This document shows, in pieces, positions 243 to 19,320 of a stretch of 32,000 nucleotides of DNA. The position numbers and the translations under genes are program-made. The notes beneath the pieces were generated by a model. The model was not told where the DNA came from, did no database searches, and saw nothing but the letters and a program-made list of their open reading frames with translations. Positions within the stretch are counted from its first letter, which is position 1; each line of letters opens with the position of its first letter. The stretch comes from an uncultured archaeon (lineage in GTDB: Archaea > Asgardarchaeota > Thorarchaeia > Thorarchaeales > Thorarchaeaceae), in contig CAYHAA010000016.1 of assembly GCA_964354495.1 (NCBI GenBank), positions 21,034 to 53,033 on the forward strand, written 5' to 3'.

Positions 243-2450
243 TTACCGCATGGAGTTGAGCAGCGTAAGAAGACTGACCTCCATCTCCTCTGCCTCCTTT
301 CTGAGAGCATGTCTCTGTTCCATGAGACTGAGAAGAATGTGGTTGATGTACTCTAGCTCTTCAAGACAGTTCTCTACTATCCCCGGCATATTATCTTCGC
401 AGACCACCTCATCAATACTGGCGGCAGGAAGTTTGCTCAGTACCTGATTCGCCACAGGTTCAAGCATCTCTGCTCTTGCTCGAATGAGGCCTCGAAGAAC
501 CGTCTTCAGGTCTGAGCGTTTGTCACCGATGGCTCTCATTACCTTCTTTGCATCTTTGACAGGAACACCCAGTATTGATACATTCTCTCCAAGAGGGGTG
601 CACTTGATACTCTTTCCATCACGAGTTATGAGCCCGTCCATCTCAAGTTCACCAAAGACTTCGAGTCCCCGCAACGCCTGCTTGATCACTCCTGCAGCAT
701 ATGCCTTGGTATCGTCCTGCCTCATGGCATACGTTGAGAACTTGACCAAGTGTTTGCAGAGACGGTGCCTCCGAATGTCTTGAAATTTCCAGGACTCACA
801 TGAACATGACACCCCGTCTCGTGATCGCAGCGAAACGTAGTGCCAGATCTCCCTGCTTCCACTGTGAACCAGCCCCTCAATCTTGTCAGGTCTCACTGAG
901 ACAAGTTTCACGCTCTCATCAGGAATCTCATTTGCCCGATTAAATGTGGACTTTGTAGAGCGCATCATCAAGAGAGAGTCCACGGAGGCATCTTCAGGAA
1001 TCTCAATTCCAATCTCCCTCACATTGGTGACTCTGCTGCTACTTCCCCAGAATGTTCGATCGATTACTGAGAACGGGTCATCCCTCTTCTCCTGTTTTCC
1101 ACATAACTGCATGAGAACAAGGTCCTGAATGTTCTCAGCCTCATCCATTTCACTATCGACTTCGCCGTGTATTGGAAGTAGGTTTCCCTCCGCGTCCCTG
1201 TCAAAGTACTTAGCTAGAATCCTGATTCGCTCTTGTTCATTGTTTACGACCACTATGCCAAAAGACTCGTTATCGATTCCTCGCCGTCCAGACGATCCCA
1301 GGACGTCACTTAGTTGCCACTCTGACAGCATCGCGACTGCATCCTCTTGGGACAACTCCTTTCCGAACTTCTGCAAGTATACCCCCATGAGAAAGACCAA
1401 TGATGCATGTAGACCACTTGCAATGGCAAAACGAATTGGCATGACAATTACCGGGAGAAGGCCCTCCTCCCAGGCCTTGGTTATTTCGCGTCTCTGGGAG
1501 GTAGACACGCCCTCATGAAAGAATGCAACTCCCCTCGATATCATCTGGCTCAGTTTCACCGTCATAGTACACTGCGGGTATTTCTTGAGAATCTCCCTTG
1601 CAAGCTGACTCAGATCATCGCGATGCTCAGGAGTCAGTCTCAGGTCCAAGACTGCAGATGTAGGCGTCTGTGCGACACCAGACAATTGACTTGCCATGTC
1701 CTCGCAAGCCTGTATATTCGCGCAAAGTATCATCACTTGCCCACTGCGATAATGAACAAACTCTGTCAGGTCCGCAAGTGAATCATTGATGTCTTCAAAT
1801 GCCTTCACGCTGAAGATTCGTTTCACATCTTCCTTCGCATCTTCTACTATACTGGCCTTCAACCAGTCGCTCAACTCCCTAAGGTTCTCAAGAGGGGGGC
1901 AGATTGCAATGTACTGCACACCCGTCAGTCCTAATAGGGTCACAAGAGACGTCTCCAGCCGCGCCCCTAATTCCGGTTGCCCTATGAGGTCAAGACGGTC
2001 TACTAGAACACAGACCAGGTCCTCCAGAATTGCTGGGTTCACCCTAGATGCAATATCGAAGGACTGGTACGTGGCGACGATGACCCGGCCTGTTCCAGCA
2101 GTCATTCTCGAAGCATTTCGTCTACGGATTATCTGTATTGCTTCTATGCCAAGCCTTCTGCATTTTTGGCTCAAGGACTGGAACCGTTTCTCTGCTTGGT
2201 GTGGGTTCGGGCAGAGGACCAAGGCTCTCGCTATGTGGTCTGATGCAACACGGTTCAGGAGCGAGATCTCTGCGATTGTATATGCCTCATCATAATCATG
2301 AGAGACTAGAATTTGGCTGACTCCTCTGGTCAAGCCCTTGCCGACAGCATCTTTCTGGAAGTCAGTCAGGTTTGCAAGACCCTGCCTTCTCAATACCTCC
2401 AGCAGCCGAGGTGCGACTTGCTGGAGTTCTAGTTCCTTGAGGGTGCTCAG
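243..2450 (-). CDS. Hel308/Ski2-like SF2 helicase homolog, predicted catalytically inactive, with an inserted SWIM zinc-finger domain
   Basis: Colinear with archaeal Hel308/Hjm: Q-motif (LTDFQKDAV), IAEISLL, VIVATY, LIGQPELGARLE, NLRELSDWL, GVAFFHEG, winged-helix TPLG. Motif I reads SHDYDEAY, motif II DRLD, motif III CPP, motif VI DVLGSSGR. SWIM CSCx13CKH lies at 816-750. The track start is TTG 2393, but the frame is open to 2468 and Hel308-like sequence continues upstream, so CTG 2450 is the preferred start. Confidence 0.85.
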   Translation of the reverse strand: MSTLKELELQQVAPRLLEVLRRQGLANLTDFQKDAVGKGLTRGVSQILVSHDYDEAYTIAEISLLNRVASDHIARALVLCPNPHQAEKRFQSLSQKCRRLGIEAIQIIRRRNASRMTAGTGRVIVATYQSFDIASRVNPAILEDLVCVLVDRLDLIGQPELGARLETSLVTLLGLTGVQYIAICPPLENLRELSDWLKASIVEDAKEDVKRIFSVKAFEDINDSLADLTEFVHYRSGQVMILCANIQACEDMASQLSGVAQTPTSAVLDLRLTPEHRDDLSQLAREILKKYPQCTMTVKLSQMISRGVAFFHEGVSTSQRREITKAWEEGLLPVIVMPIRFAIASGLHASLVFLMGVYLQKFGKELSQEDAVAMLSEWQLSDVLGSSGRRGIDNESFGIVVVNNEQERIRILAKYFDRDAEGNLLPIHGEVDSEMDEAENIQDLVLMQLCGKQEKRDDPFSVIDRTFWGSSSRVTNVREIGIEIPEDASVDSLLMMRSTKSTFNRANEIPDESVKLVSVRPDKIEGLVHSGSREIWHYVSLRSRDGVSCSCESWKFQDIRRHRLCKHLVKFSTYAMRQDDTKAYAAGVIKQALRGLEVFGELEMDGLITRDGKSIKCTPLGENVSILGVPVKDAKKVMRAIGDKRSDLKTVLRGLIRARAEMLEPVANQVLSKLPAASIDEVVCEDNMPGIVENCLEELEYINHILLSLMEQRHALRKEAEEMEVSLLTLLNSMR

Positions 2451-2737
2451 ATACTGCCACTCCGTCGTTCATTTGAGCATACTCTAATGCTATGAGGACG
2501 TAGTATCATATCCTATTAGTTTTACGTGTGTTTGGTCCAAATAGCGTTGAGCTGGTCCAAAAATACTCAAAAAGGAGTGCGTGGACGGCATGTCACCTCT
2601 CGCCAAGACTGTGAGCAGGTGGTCTATCTTACGCAGACACATACAAAGTCTCAAAAGCAGCAATCGATAGAACTGATTGAAAAGGCATAATGTAGGGTTT
2701 ATGCAATCCGTCCTTTCATATTGAGGCTTGAATAGTA

Positions 2738-3478
2738 ATGGCTTTTGTAGCTACTACCGACTCGAACTTTCAGATTATCCTGAAGAAGGGATTCAAAGTC
2801 AGACCAGGTTCAACATTCATCTGTGGGTTTCACGGACTTGGCGAAGTGGGTTTTCTGAGCACAGCACATCTGACAAGGACTCTCGAGGCAGAACGTGTGG
2901 GTTTCATAAAGAGCGACATGTTACCGCTCTTTGTGTCGATGGAGGACAAGAAACTGGTCCTGCCGTTCGAGATCTACTCCTATGGACCAAAGAAGATGGT
3001 GTTCTTGGTTCCTCGGTTCCAACCGCATCAGTCAGAGCAGTGGGGCTTTATCGACAAGCTCGCCAAGTGGATTGCAGAGAATGAATTCGAGGAGACCCTT
3101 CTCCTTGGAGGTCTAGATGCCAGCTTCAAGGAGGACGATCAGGAGATGCGTTCTGTTCCAACCTCAGCATACGAGCCCAGACTTGAGAAATGGTCAGTTC
3201 CCCTGCTAGAGGAAGGCCTCTTCGTGGCTGGTCCTCTGGCACTGATACTCGCTGAGCTTGAGATGCTTGACGTACCAGCAATCGGTCTTCTCACATATGC
3301 GACCCGTGGCCGACCCGATCCACGCTCTGCTGCCACCATGCTCGAGAAGATCAACGAGGTGTATGGTCTAGAGGCTAATGTTGAACAGCTGCTAGAGGAG
3401 TCCCGTGAGATTGAGCGCCTCGAGAAGATGCGGAAATCAATAGAATCTTCTGACAGGCCTGGTGACATGTTCGTCTAA
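2738..3478 (+). CDS. PAC2-family (proteasome assembly chaperone, PbaA/PbaB-like) protein
   Basis: 246 aa with GFHGLGEVG, LLLGGL, GPLALIL, PDPRSAA and a C-terminal helix ending MFV, all typical of PAC2. Confidence 0.85.
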   Translation: MAFVATTDSNFQIILKKGFKVRPGSTFICGFHGLGEVGFLSTAHLTRTLEAERVGFIKSDMLPLFVSMEDKKLVLPFEIYSYGPKKMVFLVPRFQPHQSEQWGFIDKLAKWIAENEFEETLLLGGLDASFKEDDQEMRSVPTSAYEPRLEKWSVPLLEEGLFVAGPLALILAELEMLDVPAIGLLTYATRGRPDPRSAATMLEKINEVYGLEANVEQLLEESREIERLEKMRKSIESSDRPGDMFV

Positions 3479-8371: not shown

Positions 8372-11300
8372 TTGAGTGCTGTAACATCGACCCGAAAAAA
8401 GATGGGCTTGACCACGATAGTTGGTTCAATCCTCGTCGTCGCAAGCATAATCTGGGGTCTGTACAGCTTCGTACTGATACAATATGGGGGTGTGAGACCG
8501 TACGAGCCGCATTATGAGTATGACCTCATCGAATACTGGCCATATACGAATAATTTCACAGGCGGCACGACCAATTGGTTTGAAAATCTGAACTATACTG
8601 ATTTCCAGATAGATCAGCCACTCCCTGAAGATATCCTTGACCGGCTTGATGATGTTGTCTTCGTGGTCACCCCAAGAGACCCGGGACATCTCTGGCGTCA
8701 GGAGTCGTATGATTACTATGATGGTGCAGGGTGGTCCAAGACCATCACTGATTCTTTCAGACCCCTCACATCAGAGGAACTCATCCAACCCTCAGCAGCA
8801 ACGAATCCGATCTACACGGTCATCTTCAATGCGCCTGCAGGCGCGGGTGTAGGTTCTATTGAACTCCCCTCCCTCTTCCCGGCAATTCGTGTCATTGATG
8901 GTTCATTCAAGACCTATAGTCTGGTGGATGGTGTCCCTGTTGAAGACATCCCCTCGAGGTTCTTACATCTAGAACTAGCGACGGACGATTACGGGACACT
9001 CTTACTCAATCCACTCATTCAAGGAACTACTGGTGAGCAGGTTCCTGTAAGCTTCGAGCTCACCTTCGTGGACCAAGACATAGACAATGTCATAGCCAAT
9101 GCATTACAGGGGAGTGCAGCTCCTGGTTGGACAGCAATCTACAGACAGCTACCCGCTCTCACACAGAGGGTCATAGACAACATCACTCAATTCTCTTCCG
9201 TTGGAAACGACGCATATGAGAAAGCAATGGCAGTGAAGACATACTTCCAGAGCACCTTCGAGCTCAACATCACTCCAGAGGCACTTGCTGACTACCCACA
9301 GGGCCAAGAGGTGACTGATTGGTTCCTGGAGCGAGGAAACGGTCTTCCCCAGCATTTTGCCACCTCCTACGCCGTCTTCATGCGATATCTTGGAGTTCCT
9401 GCACGGGTAGTGAGTGGCTATGCCTTGGGCGAGCCAGATCCTGTGGAAGACTTCCGTACTGTCATGGTCCGTCATATGACCTTCTGGGTCGAGGTGTACA
9501 TTCCTATGTCCGGCGCCACAGAGGGAGAATGGATTCAGATGATTCCTACCCCTCTTCCTCCTGAGTTTGGAGGTGGCGAGGACCCTATCAATACTCCAAT
9601 ACCTAATATCGAGCTATTAGTATGGCCGAGCAACGGGCTTCAATGGGCTGAGATAGGCACACCCTTCGAGATCAGTGCATCAATGACCGTTGATGGTGTT
9701 CCCATCACGACGCCAGACACTATCATCTTCAATGATGAGACAGACTCTCGATTCGTTGGTACAGCCACTATTGGACAACCTCCCGACCTGCCCATAGCTA
9801 ATGTCACCTATGTCTTTCCTATTGATGCGACAGTGAGCTATCACATCATGTCTGCAACCTGGGCCAATCCTTATTTCTCTGTTATCAATGCGACTGCAAT
9901 CTTTGCCGTAGGAACACCTTCGCCCTCGTTCGATGAACGACAACAAGCGGATGGGTTTGTTACCAGTGAGACCCAAGAACTGAATGTCAGTCAGGGTGTC
10001 GATACCCATGTGGCCTATTGGGAAGATACAGTCCATGTGTTTGGCATCATGACAGTGAATGGAGTTCCTGTAAACAGCTCTCAATACAACAACCGGTACA
10101 TTCAGATTATGTGGGACAACACCATTGTAGGAGATGCCTTCATTGACGAGTACGGATACTACGAGCTTGATGTGACTGTAGATCCTATGGATTTTGCATT
10201 GATGAGGGTTGGTCTCCATGAGGTCTGGTCATGGTACGCAGGTGACTGGGATGGTGAGATACCACGCCTTCTAGAGGCGCGATCCAGTGACAATTCGACA
10301 ATCACAGTCTGGGGGCGAGTTGGATTTGATCTCAGTGTGAGTCCAACAACCACCTCTGCAGGTGCAACCATCTACTATGATGGTGCTATCCGTTTTCTGA
10401 ACGGTTCTCTCCTCCCCACAGGTCAAAACGTCGGTGTGTTCTTTGGGACACAGGCAAACGCAAGCCGACCCCTGAATGCAACAGGTCGTTTTCAGTGGAG
10501 CTACATGATTCCCGTGATTCAGCCTGACGGGACATATTTTGCACGTGCGAACTGGACCAATCCACTGAACTGGCAATACATCGCGGGCAATTGGAGCATC
10601 TCAATCCCAATTGATGTGGGTGCTGGCGGAACCAATCTTTGGGTGAACCCTCTTCCAGACCCGCTGTTCATCGGTCAGGAAATTGTGATCTGGGGATACT
10701 TGACACATGTTGTCAATGGATCTGGTATTGGCCTGAAGCTGGTCGATATCTGGTGGTCTACAGGAGTACCAGTCAATCTCGGTCCGGTCATTACTGCGGG
10801 AGATGGCTACTTCGAGGTAAATTACACGATTCCTGCAGGATACGAGGGCCCAGTGGAATATTGGGCATACTTCAACTCGGTCGATCCTGCGCTTGCAAGC
10901 TCGGAGCTACTTCCTCATCTCTTCTCGAACATAAAGCGCTATGATGTGACAATATCAATTCTGGTCAATCCTGACCCCGTGCGTCTTCTCCAGACGGTAC
11001 GTATTCAAGGGTCTGCAATACTACTTGAGAACGCCAGCTCTCCACTTGCTTTCGTTAGTATCGACATTTGGTGGGGGAACTCGACAGGTGACTACCTTCT
11101 CAACACGGTGTTGACCAACGCGACGGGCGGTTATGTGTTCTACTACCAGATTCCATTAGGTCACAGCATTGAAGTCGTGACTGTCTGGGTCAGTTATACT
11201 TCCCTGTTTTCGAATATTGCAGATGGCGAATCAATCCCCGAACCAGTCTCAATTGAAGCAACTGACACGCTGATTACGGTCAACGAGGACTTCACTACAT

Positions 11301-14164
11301 ATCATCTCAACGAAACCGTGCTTCTCTATGGTAGTCTTCAGTTTGCCAATGGGACTCCTATTGCATTCGAAACCGTGTACATACACTGGGTCAATGCATC
11401 GGGCGCCTTTGTCTTTGAGCGACTCACAGACATCAATGGTAACTACCAGTTCCAGTACAATTTCTCTACAAGCATGTCTGTGGGGATAATCGATGTGCAT
11501 GTGAACTGGACATCTTGGACTCCTCTCTATGCGGATGCCTTTGATACCCTCGTACCAAGCATTGAGGTTGTGAAATACGACCTTGAGATGACCCTGATAG
11601 CACCTGCGCAGATCTATCTTGATGAGGACCTGTTCTTTGAGGGTATCCTATCCTATGCAGGTGGCTCTCCACCATTGATAGGTGAGCTCATTGAGTTGTC
11701 ATATTGGAATGGGACGGATTGGGAGCTGCTAGGCTATCTACCAACGAATTCAACTGGAGGCTTCAACGCCACATTGGGTTTCCCCACGCCCATTGAATAT
11801 ACCTATCAGTTTCGCCTTCTGTATACAGCCACCAACCCACTGAACAACGATGCTGTTGAGTATTTCAGCGTGGAAACTGTGAAGTACACAATTAACCTGG
11901 ACATCACTGTGTCACCGAACCCTGTCATGCAGAATGAGACCATCACAATTCATGCGTATCTCTACTACCAGCATAACGGGACACCGCTAGTCAATGCTGT
12001 CGTGAGTATCTACTGGGATAACGGAACGCTGTTCTTCCTCGGAAATCTCATAACCAATGGAGCTGGACAGGCTGACTTCTACTACTCTGGTATGGACTAC
12101 GACTCAGTGCGAGTCAACATTGAAGTCTACGGGTACTATGCAGGTTCAGTCTATCGAGCCGAGAGAGAATCAATTCACACCATAGTGACACTCGAACAGT
12201 GGCTCACTGAAGTGTACAATGTTGATTCAGATTTGCCTAGGTACGGACTGACTGAAACAGTGATAGTGACTGGAAATCTGCGGTTCGTTCTTCCATCTGT
12301 GCCCTATGCCGGAGTGACCATAGAGCTCCTACTCTCTGGTGTCCCACTTAACGGCACGGTGACCGCATCAGACGGGTCGTTCACACTGTACTGGACCATA
12401 CCTGAGGACACTTCCCCTGATTTCTATGACCTCGTTGTGCGGTTCCAGTCAATGCTTCCATGGATTGCAGGCTCCCAAGCATCCGTTCCGCAGTTTGAGG
12501 TCTATGCGCTTGTTATCATAATCACAGCGAACGTTGACGTGACAACTGTACATCTGGGTGAACAGATCATCTTCTCAGGAACTGCGCAATTCTCGAACAG
12601 CACACCTCTGGACGGGTATGTGATTGAAATCTGGTGGAATGGTGTTCTTCTGAACACAGCAAACGTCACAGCTGGAACCTTTAGCTATGGCTATCTGGTG
12701 CCATACTCCCAGAGTCTAGGTGTCAGGTCAGGATATGCCTTCTTCAATGCTCCAACAGCTGCATTTGTTGATGTCACAGAGTACTTCCCTGACGTGACAG
12801 TCAGAGAGTACATTGACCTCTATCTTGACTCAGAGCCCGTCGTCGACATCTTCACACGAGGCGATACTATCATCGTGACGGGCTATGTCATGAATGATGG
12901 TGCTCTACCAGCAAGTGGGGTGTCGGTTGAGGTACTGGCAGATGGAACGCCCACAGGTTACACTGGAATGACACGTGCAGATGGGACATTTTCAATAAAT
13001 CTCCTCATTCGTTCAGACCAAGCAGTTGGCCTGTATACACTGACCATCGACTCGATTGGCCCCTATCGTGATGTTCTCTCCTCCCCCTCATCATGGACCA
13101 TCTCGGTCTACATGGACTCAGTCGTAGATATTATGACAGTGGGCAGAGCATTGATGCCTGGAGAGTACTTCACCATCAACCTGCAGCTTCATGATGATCA
13201 GGGCAATCCAATCAATGGTGTAACGATTCATGTGTATCTCGATTCTTTTGAGATTGCATCTCCCTACCTAGCAGATGGAAGTGGTCAAGACTTCGACTTG
13301 ACAATACCAATATCTTTGGTAGGAAACGGTGGCCTTTTCGATGTATATGCTGAATTCGCCGGCAGCTCTTTCATCAATGGTCATACTGCGACTGGCCCCC
13401 TAATGCACATCTTCACTGACGTGACCTTCAGGCTGCTTTCTGCCTCGCGTATCGATCCCGGGCAGAGCTTTGTCATAGAGGCTGAAGTCATTGACCCTGA
13501 AGGCAATCCAATCGAGGGAAGAGATGTGCTTCTCAATCTCAATGGGACCCAAGTGATTCCTCTTACAACAGGCTCAGATGGAAGAATATCGTACCCGTCA
13601 TCAGCCTATGCAGATGGTACAACACTCTATTTCACTATCACGCTCGTATCAACAGATGTACCTGATGTAGTATCAGGTCAGTTCACAATTAGAATTCAAA
13701 CTCAAGGTGGTATTATTTTGCAGGGAACGGATCTAATCATAGCAGGAATATTACTAGTAGGTGCAGCTGTCGCCGTCGCGGCGTATCTGTACGTTGTGAA
13801 GGGTATGGGCCGCTCAACGGTCATATCGAGAGGGATTGATATCCCAACAAAGTTACGAAACATCAAGAAGCTCGCTGATGCTGGAAAATATGGTGCGTCC
13901 ATTACCTTGGCGTATCGAACTTTCGAGCAGATGTGCGGTGCGAAAATGGGATCTGAACGGACCCAATCGGAAACCGCCCGTGAGTACCTGAGTCGCGTGC
14001 TCAAGTCTATCCCTCTAGATGGTGCAACTGTTGAGCAGTTTGTTCAGACCTACGAAGAGGCTCGCTTCTCACACCATGAGATGACTCGTGAGCGATACGA
14101 AGCGGCACTTCGCGTCTTCACAGACCTATATCCAAGGATTGACTCTACTGCACCAATGGAATGA
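8372..14164 (+). CDS. Giant membrane-anchored TgpA-like protein: N-terminal TM, inactivated transglutaminase-like core, about 13 Ig-like repeats, C-terminal TM, cytoplasmic DUF4129-like domain
   Basis: 1930 aa with LWRQESYDYYDGAGW and a TGase core (HFATSYAVFMRYLGVPARVVSGY, WVEVY). About 100-aa beta-rich repeats follow, then TM LIIAGILLVGAAVAVAAYLYVV and a DUF4129-like tail (SETAREYL...TYEEARFS). Confidence 0.85.
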   Translation: MSAVTSTRKKMGLTTIVGSILVVASIIWGLYSFVLIQYGGVRPYEPHYEYDLIEYWPYTNNFTGGTTNWFENLNYTDFQIDQPLPEDILDRLDDVVFVVTPRDPGHLWRQESYDYYDGAGWSKTITDSFRPLTSEELIQPSAATNPIYTVIFNAPAGAGVGSIELPSLFPAIRVIDGSFKTYSLVDGVPVEDIPSRFLHLELATDDYGTLLLNPLIQGTTGEQVPVSFELTFVDQDIDNVIANALQGSAAPGWTAIYRQLPALTQRVIDNITQFSSVGNDAYEKAMAVKTYFQSTFELNITPEALADYPQGQEVTDWFLERGNGLPQHFATSYAVFMRYLGVPARVVSGYALGEPDPVEDFRTVMVRHMTFWVEVYIPMSGATEGEWIQMIPTPLPPEFGGGEDPINTPIPNIELLVWPSNGLQWAEIGTPFEISASMTVDGVPITTPDTIIFNDETDSRFVGTATIGQPPDLPIANVTYVFPIDATVSYHIMSATWANPYFSVINATAIFAVGTPSPSFDERQQADGFVTSETQELNVSQGVDTHVAYWEDTVHVFGIMTVNGVPVNSSQYNNRYIQIMWDNTIVGDAFIDEYGYYELDVTVDPMDFALMRVGLHEVWSWYAGDWDGEIPRLLEARSSDNSTITVWGRVGFDLSVSPTTTSAGATIYYDGAIRFLNGSLLPTGQNVGVFFGTQANASRPLNATGRFQWSYMIPVIQPDGTYFARANWTNPLNWQYIAGNWSISIPIDVGAGGTNLWVNPLPDPLFIGQEIVIWGYLTHVVNGSGIGLKLVDIWWSTGVPVNLGPVITAGDGYFEVNYTIPAGYEGPVEYWAYFNSVDPALASSELLPHLFSNIKRYDVTISILVNPDPVRLLQTVRIQGSAILLENASSPLAFVSIDIWWGNSTGDYLLNTVLTNATGGYVFYYQIPLGHSIEVVTVWVSYTSLFSNIADGESIPEPVSIEATDTLITVNEDFTTYHLNETVLLYGSLQFANGTPIAFETVYIHWVNASGAFVFERLTDINGNYQFQYNFSTSMSVGIIDVHVNWTSWTPLYADAFDTLVPSIEVVKYDLEMTLIAPAQIYLDEDLFFEGILSYAGGSPPLIGELIELSYWNGTDWELLGYLPTNSTGGFNATLGFPTPIEYTYQFRLLYTATNPLNNDAVEYFSVETVKYTINLDITVSPNPVMQNETITIHAYLYYQHNGTPLVNAVVSIYWDNGTLFFLGNLITNGAGQADFYYSGMDYDSVRVNIEVYGYYAGSVYRAERESIHTIVTLEQWLTEVYNVDSDLPRYGLTETVIVTGNLRFVLPSVPYAGVTIELLLSGVPLNGTVTASDGSFTLYWTIPEDTSPDFYDLVVRFQSMLPWIAGSQASVPQFEVYALVIIITANVDVTTVHLGEQIIFSGTAQFSNSTPLDGYVIEIWWNGVLLNTANVTAGTFSYGYLVPYSQSLGVRSGYAFFNAPTAAFVDVTEYFPDVTVREYIDLYLDSEPVVDIFTRGDTIIVTGYVMNDGALPASGVSVEVLADGTPTGYTGMTRADGTFSINLLIRSDQAVGLYTLTIDSIGPYRDVLSSPSSWTISVYMDSVVDIMTVGRALMPGEYFTINLQLHDDQGNPINGVTIHVYLDSFEIASPYLADGSGQDFDLTIPISLVGNGGLFDVYAEFAGSSFINGHTATGPLMHIFTDVTFRLLSASRIDPGQSFVIEAEVIDPEGNPIEGRDVLLNLNGTQVIPLTTGSDGRISYPSSAYADGTTLYFTITLVSTDVPDVVSGQFTIRIQTQGGIILQGTDLIIAGILLVGAAVAVAAYLYVVKGMGRSTVISRGIDIPTKLRNIKKLADAGKYGASITLAYRTFEQMCGAKMGSERTQSETAREYLSRVLKSIPLDGATVEQFVQTYEEARFSHHEMTRERYEAALRVFTDLYPRIDSTAPME

Positions 14165-14177
14165 ATAACAAGGAGAA

Positions 14178-15590
14178 ATGCTGATGGGCTGGAAAGAGAT
14201 CCTCCAAGTCACCCTCTTCCTCATGACATGGGTTCCAGTGACAGTACTGGCAGGGTACACTCTCATAGGTCTACAGCCTGCCTACACCCATGACTTCTCC
14301 ATTTACAACGAGGAATGGAACGGTCTTAGTGAGTACCGAGGTGCGATTGAGGACACTGGCCGCCCTGTGTACTCTATCCAAGCCTCGATGAGCGTGGTCA
14401 CAAGGGAGAATGGATCTGCTGTGCTTGTTATCATGGGCCCAGTTCGAGACTTCAGTCTTGATGTGACGGCGGCAGTCTATCTTCACCTACTGGCTGGAGG
14501 GGGTGTTCTCATAGCTGATGATTTTGGATCTGCAAACAACTCCCTAGCTATTCTCAATGCGCTTATGACACAGCTTCTCCCAGGGCAGCTCCCTCAAGGT
14601 GTTTCAGCGTTTCTCTCTTTCACTGGGGGAGTGTTACTTGACTTGGATTCCTATGACCCTGCAAAGGAACCGCGACTTCCTATAATCAGAGACTTCCATA
14701 GTCCCCTAGGTGCTGATCAGGGCTTTCTCACTTCTGGAGTGAATGAGCTCCACCTTAATTGGGCCACCGCAATCAGCCCATATACTCTGCTTGGACTAGG
14801 TGGAATTGCGTGGTGCACTCCCCGGTCCTGGTGCGAAACCAACATCACCGATCCAAGTCCTGAGCCTAACCCGGGTGAGTGGAATGGCAGCCTTCCCGTT
14901 GCTGGTGCGCTTGATTTCTCCTCCCCTCAAAATCCAAACGGTGGTCGGCTGGTTGCAGTGAGTGATCCGAGTATTTTCAATAATGACATGTACGGCAGAT
15001 TCCCTGACAACCAAAGATTCGGTGCGAACATCATAGAGTGGCTATCTCATTCTAATGCTTCAGAACCAGTCCTATTCTGTGAGGAACTTCTTGCAGTACC
15101 ATGGAACAGTGCGGAGTTCTCATTTGGCCTGTATCTCAGTCGAGCCCTATGGTTGTCAACCTTCCCGTTGGTTTCTGCTCTATACCCGCTTATGACCGCG
15201 ATTGGTATGAAGAAATACCTGCCAGAGTTGAAGAAGCCTGAAGTAAAGAGTGTATCAGATGTCTTTCTCAGAAGAGGACAGACATACTTCAGCGAGCGTA
15301 TGACATTCTACAGAACTGAAGGCAATTATGCTAGAGTCGTGAAGATGCTTCATCGTAAGCTGAAACGAGGGCTTAGGAAGCAACAGCAGATGACCGAGTA
15401 CAGCTCGGCAGCTCTTTGGGATCTGATGCGCTATAAAGACTCCAAACTGCGGGAAGGAGAGTTCTTGGCCACTCTAGGGCGAATAGAAGAGATTGCAGCT
15501 GATCCGAATATGAAGATAAAGGAGAGCGAGATGATGGGGCTCTTCTTCTTTATGCGTAATATCCAATCATTGCTAATTGACACCAGATAA
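14178..15590 (+). CDS. DUF4350-like membrane-anchored protein
   Basis: N-terminal TM, then FSIYNEEWNGLSEY, GGGVLIADDFG and GRLVAVSDPSIFNNDM, a second TM and a helical cytoplasmic tail. This family is commonly found next to MoxR/DUF58. The start may be ATG 14184. Confidence 0.7.
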   Translation: MLMGWKEILQVTLFLMTWVPVTVLAGYTLIGLQPAYTHDFSIYNEEWNGLSEYRGAIEDTGRPVYSIQASMSVVTRENGSAVLVIMGPVRDFSLDVTAAVYLHLLAGGGVLIADDFGSANNSLAILNALMTQLLPGQLPQGVSAFLSFTGGVLLDLDSYDPAKEPRLPIIRDFHSPLGADQGFLTSGVNELHLNWATAISPYTLLGLGGIAWCTPRSWCETNITDPSPEPNPGEWNGSLPVAGALDFSSPQNPNGGRLVAVSDPSIFNNDMYGRFPDNQRFGANIIEWLSHSNASEPVLFCEELLAVPWNSAEFSFGLYLSRALWLSTFPLVSALYPLMTAIGMKKYLPELKKPEVKSVSDVFLRRGQTYFSERMTFYRTEGNYARVVKMLHRKLKRGLRKQQQMTEYSSAALWDLMRYKDSKLREGEFLATLGRIEEIAADPNMKIKESEMMGLFFFMRNIQSLLIDTR

Positions 15591-15607: not shown

Positions 15608-16597
15608 TTGACAACAGAAGAACCGAATGAGATCCCGATTGTCGAGACAACCGCAACGATGAGTATCGATGAGGTTCGCAGTACGACCTCGGAGATCATT
15701 CGCGAATGCAACCGAATCATAGTTGGCAAGAATGAGATACTGCAGAATGTTCTCATTGCCATGCTGGCCAACGGACATGTAATACTTGAAGGAGTTCCCG
15801 GGCTTGCTAAGACTTACATGGCACGTACTTTCGCATCAATCCTAGGATGTGCCTTCAAGAGAATACAACTGACTGTAGACACGCTCCCTGCAGACCTGCT
15901 TGGAAGCAACGTGTTCAATCAACGAACAGGAGAGTTCTGGTTCCGTAAGGGTCCCGTGTTTGCCAACTTTGTGTTAGCTGACGAGATTAACAGATGCCCA
16001 CCAAAGTCACAGAGCGCACTGCTTGAAGTGATGGAGGAACGCCAAGTCTCAATTGAAGGTGTGACGAGAAAGCTGCCACGCCCATTCTTGATTGTGGCAA
16101 CCCAGAATCCAGTGGAGCAAGAGGGCACTTATCCACTGCCTGAGGCGCAGCTCGATAGGTTCATGTTCCGCCTGATATTGGACTATCCCACTGATGAGGA
16201 AGAGGCTGAGGTCATCCGGCGGAAGCATCTTGGTGAGGCTACAGAGCTCAGGGTTCTCGCTGACCCCTCACTCATGGTTCGTATGCAAAATACATGTCAG
16301 ACTGTCTTCATCGAAGAGGATATCATCAATTACATCCGAGACATTGTTGTCCGAACCCGGAATGACCCGCAAATCCTACTCGGTGGGTCGCCCAGAGCCT
16401 CGCTTGTCCTGATGAGTGCCTCTAAGGCACGAGCTGCAATGCTTGGTCGTGACTTTGTGATCCCTGAGGACATACGAAAACTGTCAGTTGAGACACTGAA
16501 CCACCGGCTCGTTCTCAAACCAGAGGCCGAGCTCGAAGGGCTATCCGTAGAACGGATTGTGACAAAGATACTCGGCGAGGTAGACTGTCCTCGCTAG
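15608..16597 (+). CDS. moxR: MoxR-family AAA+ ATPase
   Basis: Walker A GVPGLAKT, Walker B LADEINR, ATQNPVEQEGTYPLPEAQLDRF and GGSPRA. Confidence 0.95.
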   Translation: MTTEEPNEIPIVETTATMSIDEVRSTTSEIIRECNRIIVGKNEILQNVLIAMLANGHVILEGVPGLAKTYMARTFASILGCAFKRIQLTVDTLPADLLGSNVFNQRTGEFWFRKGPVFANFVLADEINRCPPKSQSALLEVMEERQVSIEGVTRKLPRPFLIVATQNPVEQEGTYPLPEAQLDRFMFRLILDYPTDEEEAEVIRRKHLGEATELRVLADPSLMVRMQNTCQTVFIEEDIINYIRDIVVRTRNDPQILLGGSPRASLVLMSASKARAAMLGRDFVIPEDIRKLSVETLNHRLVLKPEAELEGLSVERIVTKILGEVDCPR

Positions 16598-16615: not shown

Positions 16616-17938
16616 GTGATCACCCAGAGGGGCTTTGTAGTAGTATTCGCGGGAGTCCTCCTGCTAACAAGTGGATTCTCCTTTGTCAATTTCTACTTCA
16701 TTCTGCTGGGTGCCTATCTTCTGATTGGACTTGTTGTGACATTGCCCCTCTTTGCTCTCACAGCGAATCTTGCTGGTATCGAAGTCGACCGCCAAATCGA
16801 CAAAGTAAAAGTGTTCTCGGGAGATTTCCTGCGAATTCGTGTCACCATCAAGAACATCTCCAGACGCCATTTTGACTTCATTGAAGTGCATGATCAGTAT
16901 CCTGAGACATGGATTCTCGCAATAGGAGAGAACTTCATTGCATCACGTATCGAGCCTGGCAGCAGTATCACCTTCTCGTATATCCTTCAGGCGAGGATGC
17001 GTGGCCGCTACTTCATTGGCCCCACGGAGGTAGTAATGCGAGATCGGCTTGGGCTCCATTACTATTCACGAACACTCAAGGCTCACACCGAAGTCCTTGT
17101 CTATCCTACATGGAAGGACGTGCGCCGAATGGAGGCTCTTGGCAAGCAGCGCCAGCTCGGACTCATGTTCGGAGCACACAGAACAAAGACCGTCGGAATG
17201 GGGTCTGACTTTGTGGGTTTCAGGGATTACACGCCCGGTGACGAGTTCAGGCTTATCGACTGGAAGACCAGTGCGAAACGCGGCGATATGGTGATCAAGC
17301 AGTTCGAGATGGAGAAGAATATCCAAGTCATCTGCATGTTGGACACAAGCGGAAGCATGGGAAATGGCTATCCAGAGAACACGAAACTGGAATACGCCAT
17401 CAGGGCTGCAGTACTTCTGACGCACATGGGCCTTGAGAGAAAAGACCTCATTGGGACGTGCGTGTTCAGTGACATAGTTCACAGCTATGTTCCTCCTGGA
17501 GTAACCCCTAATCACATGTATAGTGTCCTTGAGGCGTTGGCTGGTGCTGAACCGACGGGTTGGAGCGATTACGAGACTGCGATAGAGTACGTTGTGAAAC
17601 AGACAAAGAAACGGTCACTCATCATCTGGCTGACTGATCTTGAGGAGAGTCCGGCTCCACTCCTCAACGCAATGAAGGCGCTAGTGGCCAATGGTCACAA
17701 AGCCATGGTGATTAGCCCATTTGGCCCTTGGTTCGAGGCACCGGTTGGTCAGTTCGGACCCGTAGAAAAGGTGCTCTCTGAGGCAGTTTCTGAGGAGCTC
17801 TGGGAGAGAAGGGCCAAGATTGCTCAGGCGTTGGCTCGATTCAGTATTGAGGTCATCAATGTTGGCCCAGAGGACTTTCTGCCGACTATCATCAAGACCT
17901 ATGAGCATGCAAAACAGAAGGGGGTGGCAATGTTTTGA
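16616..17938 (+). CDS. DUF58 / von Willebrand A domain protein (MoxR partner) with N-terminal TM helices
   Basis: DFVGFRDYTPGDEFRLIDWKTSAK (DUF58), MIDAS-like DTSGS and WLTDL, with an Ig-like segment (GRYFIGP...DRLGL) before them. Confidence 0.92.
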   Translation: MITQRGFVVVFAGVLLLTSGFSFVNFYFILLGAYLLIGLVVTLPLFALTANLAGIEVDRQIDKVKVFSGDFLRIRVTIKNISRRHFDFIEVHDQYPETWILAIGENFIASRIEPGSSITFSYILQARMRGRYFIGPTEVVMRDRLGLHYYSRTLKAHTEVLVYPTWKDVRRMEALGKQRQLGLMFGAHRTKTVGMGSDFVGFRDYTPGDEFRLIDWKTSAKRGDMVIKQFEMEKNIQVICMLDTSGSMGNGYPENTKLEYAIRAAVLLTHMGLERKDLIGTCVFSDIVHSYVPPGVTPNHMYSVLEALAGAEPTGWSDYETAIEYVVKQTKKRSLIIWLTDLEESPAPLLNAMKALVANGHKAMVISPFGPWFEAPVGQFGPVEKVLSEAVSEELWERRAKIAQALARFSIEVINVGPEDFLPTIIKTYEHAKQKGVAMF

Positions 17939-19320
17939 GAGTCGTCACTTGGATTCTCCGGATTGCCTCGATTGCCACGTTTGCAGGCATGGCGTATCTT
18001 GTGTACAGTCTACTTGACTCCAATGACATCTGGCACTGGGCGGCTCCCTACGATTTTGTTGTAACTGTATTTCGTTTACTATCACTGCTCATCTTCTTCT
18101 TTACAAGTACTATGATCAGTGGACTCGCAGCTGCTCTCTCTGGTACTCTTCCAAACGATATCATAGTGGGTCTCTACAACGTCATTGTTCTTCGGTCGTG
18201 GTACATGCAACCATATGGTGTGGATGACCCGATGACCAATCTGGGACAAGTATGGGCTTCGTTCCAATCCAATCTTGCTCAAGTCCTTGCAGCTCTCTGG
18301 GATAATACCTTCCTCTTCTTGTATTTTCTATTTGCAGGAATTGGTATTGCACTCTTTCTGCAGTCTCTCTTCAGAATGGACCACAAGTTCGTCGGTGGTG
18401 CATTCATATCAATTCAGTCAATTCTGATTCTTGCTGCTTACAAGTTGCTGACGGTTCCCAATCTTGACCCATTTCCAACGGATTTTGTGGTCTTTCTAAG
18501 CGCGAATGCTCAACTTCTGGCACTAGTTTCCTTTGCCTATCTGGAGGTCAGTTACCAAATGATCTACAGCTACTCGGTTGGTAAACCCATTGAGGATCGA
18601 GAAGAGACCCTCAAGAAGCAGCTGCTGGCCCTCAGACAGGCAACAAGAAAGCAGGATGCCATCGAGAGAGGCGAGAAGGTAAGCATAACGGGCATGAGCC
18701 GTACGTCAGGATTGATTGCCTTCTCATTCCTACGAGAAGCAATCGAACGAAAGGTTGTTGGCACGCAGGATGCACTTGAGAATCTTGACGCAATCTCTGA
18801 TGTGCGGCGTCTCCAGATATTTGTTGATGAATTGCTTCAATCAGATTCGAAAGCAAAGGATGAGCTCACTGCGAAGGCAGCATCGCCATCATCGTTCTAT
18901 GTAATCGGGTCGGCGATAACCGGTTCTGCAATCAGATTTCTGAGTATCATTGCGATTGCATTCATTCTACTCAATCCCAGCGCGCTCATGATTCTACTCA
19001 ACTTGCCGCAGGGAATTGAGCACAGTATCGAGATACTCCAACCAGAGATAATACTGCTCTTTCTTGTCCCGATTATCCTTGCATTTCCATTTGTTTCGAT
19101 GATTATTACTTGGTTTTCAAAGAGGGAAGTTGAGGAAACAGAGGAACTCACCAACGAAGAGAAGGAAGCGGAACGACAGCGGAAGAAGGAGTCTGCTCGA
19201 CGTCGAAAGGAGGCAGCGAAGGCTCGAAAAGCTAGGGCAGAGGCAAGAAAGAAGCGGAAGGGCCATGAGATTGAAGTTGACGAGTGGGACAAAGCCTTGG
19301 AAGATAGCTATCGACGGTAG
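17935..19320 (+). CDS. Uncharacterised polytopic membrane protein with a large charged cytoplasmic loop and a K/R/E-rich C-terminal tail
   Basis: 461-aa ORF with about 7-8 hydrophobic segments. Its TTG start overlaps the DUF58 stop (TTGA), which indicates translational coupling. No family recognised. Confidence 0.75.
   Translation: MRVVTWILRIASIATFAGMAYLVYSLLDSNDIWHWAAPYDFVVTVFRLLSLLIFFFTSTMISGLAAALSGTLPNDIIVGLYNVIVLRSWYMQPYGVDDPMTNLGQVWASFQSNLAQVLAALWDNTFLFLYFLFAGIGIALFLQSLFRMDHKFVGGAFISIQSILILAAYKLLTVPNLDPFPTDFVVFLSANAQLLALVSFAYLEVSYQMIYSYSVGKPIEDREETLKKQLLALRQATRKQDAIERGEKVSITGMSRTSGLIAFSFLREAIERKVVGTQDALENLDAISDVRRLQIFVDELLQSDSKAKDELTAKAASPSSFYVIGSAITGSAIRFLSIIAIAFILLNPSALMILLNLPQGIEHSIEILQPEIILLFLVPIILAFPFVSMIITWFSKREVEETEELTNEEKEAERQRKKESARRRKEAAKARKARAEARKKRKGHEIEVDEWDKALEDSYRR

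Follow-up and report, generated by a model that had tools for sequence, protein, structure and literature searches.

What does a transglutaminase-like domain do, and why is it kept, when all three of its catalytic residues have been replaced? The question is raised by a gene of 1930 codons encoding a giant TgpA-like membrane protein, located in a 32,000-nucleotide stretch of contig CAYHAA010000016.1 (hereafter the window) from an uncultured archaeon of the Thorarchaeaceae within the Asgardarchaeota. In TgpA from Pseudomonas aeruginosa (PA2873), a Cys–His–Asp triad is needed for activity, transglutaminase activity has been measured, and the protein has been reported as critical for viability (PMC3507681). 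A preliminary description of the archaeal gene had read this triad as completely substituted within a preserved fold and had proposed a selected binding or structural role, possibly as a peptide-binding tip.

Triad substitution within a preserved TgpA fold

The gene product is a two-anchor membrane protein, comprising an N-terminal transmembrane segment (TM1), the TgpA-like head, approximately 13 immunoglobulin (Ig)-like repeats, a second transmembrane segment (TM2) and a cytoplasmic DUF4129 tail. Its longest open reading frame (ORF) starts with TTG at position 8372, and the true start is likely the conserved methionine at residue 11 (8402). At the positions of the catalytic cysteine, histidine and aspartate, the head carries Pro326, Thr370 and Ile391 (Table 1), exactly at the coordinates given in the preliminary description, as confirmed by the codons, the alignment to TgpA and a structural model. 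The Cys–His–Asp(Glu) triad that is the hallmark of active transglutaminases is thus missing from this head.

The homology was established at the sequence level by phmmer against the PDB sequences, which matched the region to P. aeruginosa TgpA (6g49; E 1e-6), with the catalytic residues of the latter aligned with Pro326, Thr370 and Ile391, and by the PF01841 profile, which matched above its gathering score. Because the triad was read directly from significant homology, its absence is not a chance effect. At the structural level, an AlphaFold2 model of residues 36–450 was computed from 34 homologs, with a mean predicted local distance difference test score of 86.7 and values of 93–98 in the core. 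In this model, residue 326 opens the "catalytic" helix, and Thr370 and Ile391 lie on or next to the strands at 369–379 and 385–390. Foldseek returned TgpA as the top match (E 4.5e-14), and alignment of the model (residues 32–369 in model numbering) to 6g49 with VIA-align gave a Z of 22.5 over 262 of 288 residues at 3.5 Å; the same comparison gave Z values of 7–8.6 for FXIII, TG2 and TG3. Given the extent of this match, the whole TgpA periplasmic domain, β domain as well as core, appears to have been kept. The claim of a preserved fold was therefore borne out by profile, model and structural match alike, and the head, with its triad completely substituted, is confidently predicted to retain the TgpA fold.

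A misaligned or shifted triad was ruled out, as the 6g49 alignment, the alignment of the clade and the secondary structure of the model all concur. His368, two residues upstream of the former catalytic histidine position, was likewise rejected as a shifted catalytic histidine, since relatives that keep the latter often carry both (HxH). No substitute cysteine nucleophile was found in the 1750-residue ectodomain: the approximately 1750 residues between TM1 and TM2 contain no cysteine and 34 N-x-S/T sequons, 30 of which lie within the equally cysteine-free repeat array, and the lone cysteine of the entire protein, C1855, belongs to the cytoplasmic tail. At position 334, where 77% of the orthologs have a cysteine, this protein has an alanine. 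As the triad is required and no other cysteine could replace it, the head would be dead as a transglutaminase or cysteine peptidase.

Fixation of the loss

All 23 orthologs from the same genus carry proline at the first site, followed by Thr, Ala, Val, Gln or Ser at the second and Ile, Val or Met at the third. For a wider survey, 87 genomes of the class were searched and all matches were fetched and aligned. The gene was present in 72 of these genomes and in 17 of 17 genera. Within the family set, which comprised 70 copies from 16 genera, the cysteine site was proline in every copy; the histidine site was occupied by Met, Thr, Leu, Ala, Val, Ile, Ser, Gln or Phe and never by His; and the aspartate site by Ile, Leu, Val, Met or Phe and never by Asp or Glu, with Asn in 2 protein clusters. 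No stop codons were encountered in the aligned regions of these 70 copies. The protein collection gave the same result, with proline in 94 of 94 clusters at 90% identity and, once 19 representatives at the 50% level had been added to form the Thor-clade set, in 113 of 113 proteins. The loss of the triad is old and fixed throughout the Thorarchaeaceae-like family f1. Orthologs that mostly keep Cys, His and Asp, which the preliminary description had named as evidence against its proposal, are not what this family contains.

The three sites are all apolar (Pro; Met/Thr/Leu/Ala/Val; Ile/Leu/Val), a pattern expected of a filled-in hydrophobic spot no less than of an open peptide cleft, and the residues at the histidine and aspartate sites give hints of size matching, for example Phe with Phe. 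A set of polar residues near the old site is conserved. His368 is histidine in each of the 69 family copies whose sequence reaches this site (one copy is truncated) and in 113 of 113 proteins; Glu374, Thr331 and Gln389 are, like it, invariant or nearly so in these 113 proteins; and Asp/His328 also belongs to the set. Judged from the alignments, His368, Glu374, Thr331 and Gln389 look like features of the fold rather than a rebuilt centre.

Selection on the head

Ratios of nonsynonymous to synonymous substitution (dN/dS) were computed by the pairwise Nei–Gojobori method for pairs with dS values of 1.2–1.6. The transglutaminase core yielded 0.04–0.14, equal to or lower than the N-terminal β domain and the Ig array, and it showed the highest column identity within the ectodomain (0.80 versus 0.65–0.70). 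The codons of Pro326 were distributed over CCA, CCC, CCT and CCG as 26, 20, 12 and 12 among the 70 family copies, and both codons were in use at each of His368, Glu374 and Gln389. Since all synonymous codons are used, the residues themselves are held by selection. The substituted domain is under strong purifying selection, which argues for a selected non-catalytic role. A pseudogene was rejected on the low dN/dS, the absence of stop codons in the aligned regions and the turnover of synonymous codons. The cytoplasmic tail displayed 93% column identity and dN/dS values of 0.03–0.07.

Stepwise history of the loss

The giant gene is the first of five co-oriented genes, followed by those for a DUF4350 protein, a MoxR-type ATPase, a DUF58/vWA protein and a polytopic membrane protein. 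This operon was found in identical order at 20 loci across the phylum, and the giant proteins at these loci were taken as orthologs because of the conserved gene order. The single genome of a sister family (L051/P0030) encodes an operon ortholog with Asp–His–Glu, and other Asgard lineages have Gly–His–Asp or Ser–His–Asp. Relatives named Asgardarchaeia carry Ala–His–Asp, and those from Ranarchaeia and Baldrarchaeia Ser–His–Asp. Most Asgard lineages thus show Ser, Ala or Gly together with His and Asp. One ortholog in the same operon (L056, 12628–17340, minus strand; G030; also P0049 and P0065) has two tandem heads, Cys–His–Asp followed by Pro–His–Asp. Either Cys was changed to Pro independently in this lineage, or the Thor-type head derives from a duplicate of this kind. 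The survey of orthologs thus upheld the conserved loss within the family, whereas His and Asp persist in more distant operon orthologs and the full triad in one of them; the loss was accordingly stepwise and not the ancestral state of the whole group.

A maximum-likelihood (ML) tree of the domain separated Cys-containing TgpA-type proteins (TgpA_N, core and DUF4129) from a Cys-less clade (100/100). Within the latter, a ladder leads from Ser/Ala–His–Asp through Ser/Gly–His–Asp and Asp–His–Glu to a monophyletic Pro clade, which has a support of 100/99 and a stem length of 0.61 and is sister to the Asp–His–Glu form. Midpoint rooting served only for display. Assuming a root on the TgpA side, the loss of the nucleophile came first and was followed by interchange of Ser, Ala and Gly; His and Asp were long retained, until both disappeared on the stem leading to the Thorarchaeota family. 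The interchange of Ser, Ala and Gly at the site in the deeper branches suggests that a nucleophile had already become dispensable. The Ig array had approximately doubled before the loss of His and Asp, with ~1150–1200 residues in the Ser/Ala/Gly forms versus 1852 residues in the Asp–His–Glu form.

A 646-residue Ala–His–Asp protein from Candidatus Bathyarchaeia (P0151) also falls in the Cys-less clade, which is therefore not restricted to Asgard archaea. A separate family of 1600–3300 residues (P0020–P0048, P0245/P0246) combines three to four transglutaminase cores, HEAT repeats, Ig-like repeats and a C-terminal DUF4129. Its first core is usually Ser/Ala/Gly–His–Asp and the later ones Cys–His–Glu/Asp, so that dead and live heads occur in one chain.

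Role of the substituted head

We consider it quite probable that the head is a pseudo-enzyme, a TgpA-homologous transglutaminase/papain-fold module kept as a non-catalytic scaffold or binding part of a membrane adaptor. Such a head would no longer be able to form a thioester intermediate and would act on the outside of the membrane as a scaffold for structure or for protein interactions. As all three sites are apolar and the histidine site tolerates nine residues, the formerly polar active centre may have become an apolar patch or core. As is supposed for TgpA, TM2 and DUF4129 would couple events outside to MoxR–DUF58 on the inner side. A membrane-proximal position is more likely than a distal tip, because the conserved hydrophobic anchor TM1 (19–25 residues) directly precedes the head and TM2 provides a second anchor. 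Of the role proposed in the preliminary description, the selected non-catalytic part stood, in view of the kept fold, the conserved loss and the purifying selection, and the peptide-binding tip found no support: TM1 adjoins the head, TM2 lies at residues 1788–1806 and the former active site is now hydrophobic. Some points weigh against a non-catalytic scaffold. The conserved polar set near the old site (His368, Glu374, Thr331, Gln389 and Asp/His328) leaves a different chemistry possible, the direction of the stepwise history presumes a root on the TgpA-type side, and no partner or ligand for the head was found. A predicted complex of the head (residues 85–450) with the DUF4350 ectodomain (residues 27–330), both entered as alignments, scored 0.00, which favours neither outcome.

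The polar set would be put to use if the head were still an enzyme with a rebuilt centre, for example a Thr/His or His/Glu arrangement of Thr331, His368 and Glu374, with a surface substrate for its hydrolase or transferase activity. The near-invariance of His368, Glu374, Thr331 and Gln389 in the 113 proteins agrees with this, and His368 would share a face with the old histidine, being placed two residues before it on the same strand in the secondary structure of the model. These polar residues are inherited, however, as relatives with the catalytic histidine also show His or Asn at −2, WxE and Thr at Cys+5. Moreover, proline at the nucleophile position is incapable of acting as a nucleophile, and the interchange seen in the deeper branches points to earlier dispensability, so that we regard a rebuilt enzyme as very unlikely. 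Even harder to credit is decay of the gene or domain under relaxed constraint, with the triad loss as neutral erosion. The giant protein does evolve faster than its partners and the histidine site is variable, but ORFs of ~2000 residues are intact in dozens of species, the dN/dS of the core is far below 1, Pro326 is kept through all four codons and the core is the best-conserved segment of the ectodomain. Neutral erosion was excluded on dN/dS, the absence of stop codons in the aligned regions, codon turnover and column identity.

In a further reading, the head has lost turnover but its former cleft still binds the old Gln/Lys-type substrate or a surface glycan or protein, so that it would read ligands or peptides at the tip of the stalk for sensing or adhesion. 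Dead transglutaminase folds elsewhere do bind, as in Cyk3p (PMC3386208) and in band 4.2 and XPC/Rad4 (PMC10318531); conservation is extreme in the motif residues around the triad; and the remainder of the ectodomain is an adhesin-like Ig-repeat array. A retained substrate pocket, however, predicts something other than three polar catalytic residues turned apolar and nine residue types at the histidine site, the conserved TM1 beside the head speaks against a distal tip, and no partner was found, which together make this reading unlikely. It also seems rather improbable that an AAA+-coupled surface machine, widespread in Asgard archaea, uses the head for recognition, the head having passed from cross-linking or cleaving a surface substrate to holding it non-covalently and signalling via TM2 and DUF4129 to MoxR–DUF58. 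If it were, these archaea would possess an ATP-driven adhesion or envelope-remodelling device, and the series Cys–His–Asp, Ser/Ala/Gly–His–Asp, Asp–His–Glu and Pro–x–hydrophobic would document how an enzyme turned into a receptor.

Comparison with known systems

The archaeal protein shares with TgpA the fold of the extracytoplasmic domain, a C-terminal transmembrane segment followed by cytoplasmic DUF4129, and an operon with MoxR and DUF58 (PMC3507681, PMC6803598). It differs in that the triad of TgpA is intact and active, whereas all three residues are replaced in the Thorarchaeota head; in that the N-terminus of TgpA is polytopic, whereas the archaeal protein has only TM1 and no match to PF11992 (TgpA_N) in Pfam; in the ~1350 residues of Ig-like repeats inserted between head and TM2; and in the additional DUF4350 and polytopic membrane proteins of its operon.

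Transglutaminase/papain-like folds without a working triad are already known from eukaryotes, namely erythrocyte protein 4.2 (EPB42), Cyk3p, XPC/Rad4, menin and FBXO21 (PMC10318531, PMC3386208). In the first three they are used as scaffold or binding modules, and in fission-yeast Cyk3p, the dead domain is essential (PMC3386208). Protein 4.2 and XPC were among the structural matches of our model with Z values of 6–8, although at 12–16% identity there is no specific relationship. Unlike these cytoplasmic or nuclear proteins, the Thorarchaeota head is extracellular, belongs to a MoxR/vWA operon and shows a decay that can be traced in living lineages. The triad of MoxR, DUF58 and transglutaminase genes is likewise known (PMC6803598, PMC12067865). 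The bifidobacterial PFNA cluster (pkb2, fn3, MoxR-type aaa-atp, duf58 and tgm) similarly combines genes for MoxR, DUF58 and a membrane transglutaminase with a surface protein of FN3/Ig-type repeats (PMC6803598), but repeats and transglutaminase are separate proteins there, whereas they are fused in Thorarchaeota, with a dead transglutaminase. A literature search retrieved no description of a dead TgpA-type head, of the present Asgard family, of dead transglutaminase domains in Asgard archaea, or of DUF4129/DUF4350/MoxR systems in archaea.

Genomic context

The features of the gene and its surroundings are collected in Table 1. In 13 species of the genus, the operon includes an ortholog of 2038–2122 residues. 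Rates are asymmetric within the operon, as MoxR and DUF58 are 85–94% identical across the genus, compared with 45–67% for the giant protein (53% in L049) and 62–84% for the DUF4350 protein. Beyond a weakly hydrophobic segment around residue 330, the C-terminal third of the latter (15200–15590) contains a conserved basic helical tail of ~120 residues (YFSERM...YRTEGNY...), and this tail possibly lies in the cytoplasm, where the giant protein has its DUF4129 domain.

Two smaller transglutaminase-like genes in the source genome have an intact Cys–His–Asp, which makes the triad loss specific to the giant gene. The 484-residue product is Cys-rich, starts with a hydrophobic stretch as a putative signal sequence and is encoded next to a sequon-rich membrane protein. 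At another locus (L044, genome G010), an extra ORF of 199 residues (2217–2816, plus strand) lies just upstream of the giant gene and is 50% identical to the N-terminal part of the giant protein; a partial duplication and an assembly artefact are both conceivable. Genome G073 of the same family has two dead-head copies far apart on its 2.6-Mb contig C1 (1398719–1399324 and 744624–745088).

Table 1. Coordinates of the giant gene, its parts and neighbours in the window, and of further transglutaminase-like genes (locus or contig named)
Feature	Position	Strand	Basis
Giant TgpA-like membrane protein, 1930 codons	8372–14164	+	Single ORF
TM1, N-terminal membrane anchor, residues 16–34	8417–8473	+	Kyte–Doolittle 2.19; 78% mean column identity, 14 orthologs
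TgpA-periplasmic-domain-like module (β domain and transglutaminase core), residues ~67–404	8570–9583	+	Structural alignment to 6g49, Foldseek
Pfam Transglut_core match, residues 278–390	9203–9541	+	E 3.8e-15; 56.5 bits, cut-off 23
Pro326 (CCC) at catalytic Cys position, in GLPQHFA; first residue of helix	9347–9349	+	
His368, invariant, two residues before former catalytic His position	9473–9475	+	
Thr370 (ACC) at catalytic His position, in MTFWVEVY	9479–9481	+	
Ile391 (ATT) at catalytic Asp position, in WIQMIPT	9542–9544	+	
Ig-like/CarboxypepD_reg/macroglobulin-like repeats, ~1350 residues, extracellular	9659–13732	+	Pfam; hydropathy and sequence scan
TM2, residues 1788–1806	13733–13789	+	Kyte–Doolittle 2.63; 89% column identity
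Cytoplasmic DUF4129 domain, residues 1847–1914	13910–14113	+	Pfam E 1.8e-12; present in TgpA too
DUF4350 protein, operon partner with extracellular domain	14178–15590	+	Domain match, operon comparison, hydropathy
MoxR-type AAA+ ATPase (AAA_3)	15608–16597	+	E 7e-62; 85–94% identical across genus
DUF58/vWA protein	16616–17938	+	Domain match, operon comparison
Polytopic membrane protein, 461 residues, no family match, last operon gene	17935–19320	+	Hydropathy, operon comparison
Transglutaminase-like protein, 350 residues, intact Cys–His–Asp	L001: 916–1968; G000 contig C5: 122818–123117	+	
Transglutaminase-like protein, 484 residues, intact Cys–His–Asp	L003: 1252–2706; G000 contig C43: 1541–1828	-	

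Significance

Public records label ~100 Thorarchaeota proteins as "transglutaminase-like putative cysteine protease" or "transglutaminase domain-containing protein". These annotations call for correction, as none of the proteins so labelled would be able to use cysteine-triad chemistry. The operon orthologs also provide a natural series of decay from enzyme to pseudo-enzyme within one conserved operon, which helps to ask which residues serve the non-catalytic job of TgpA-like proteins. We regard the stepwise series, together with the implication for the function of TgpA–MoxR–DUF58 modules, as the valuable parts of the analysis. For Asgard archaea, whose cell-surface biology bears on models of eukaryogenesis, the giant protein would represent a major surface component open to glycosylation. 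Should an entire archaeal lineage be able to do without catalysis while its MoxR and DUF58 partners remain 85–94% identical, the main task of the MoxR–DUF58–transglutaminase module may be something other than cross-linking proteins.

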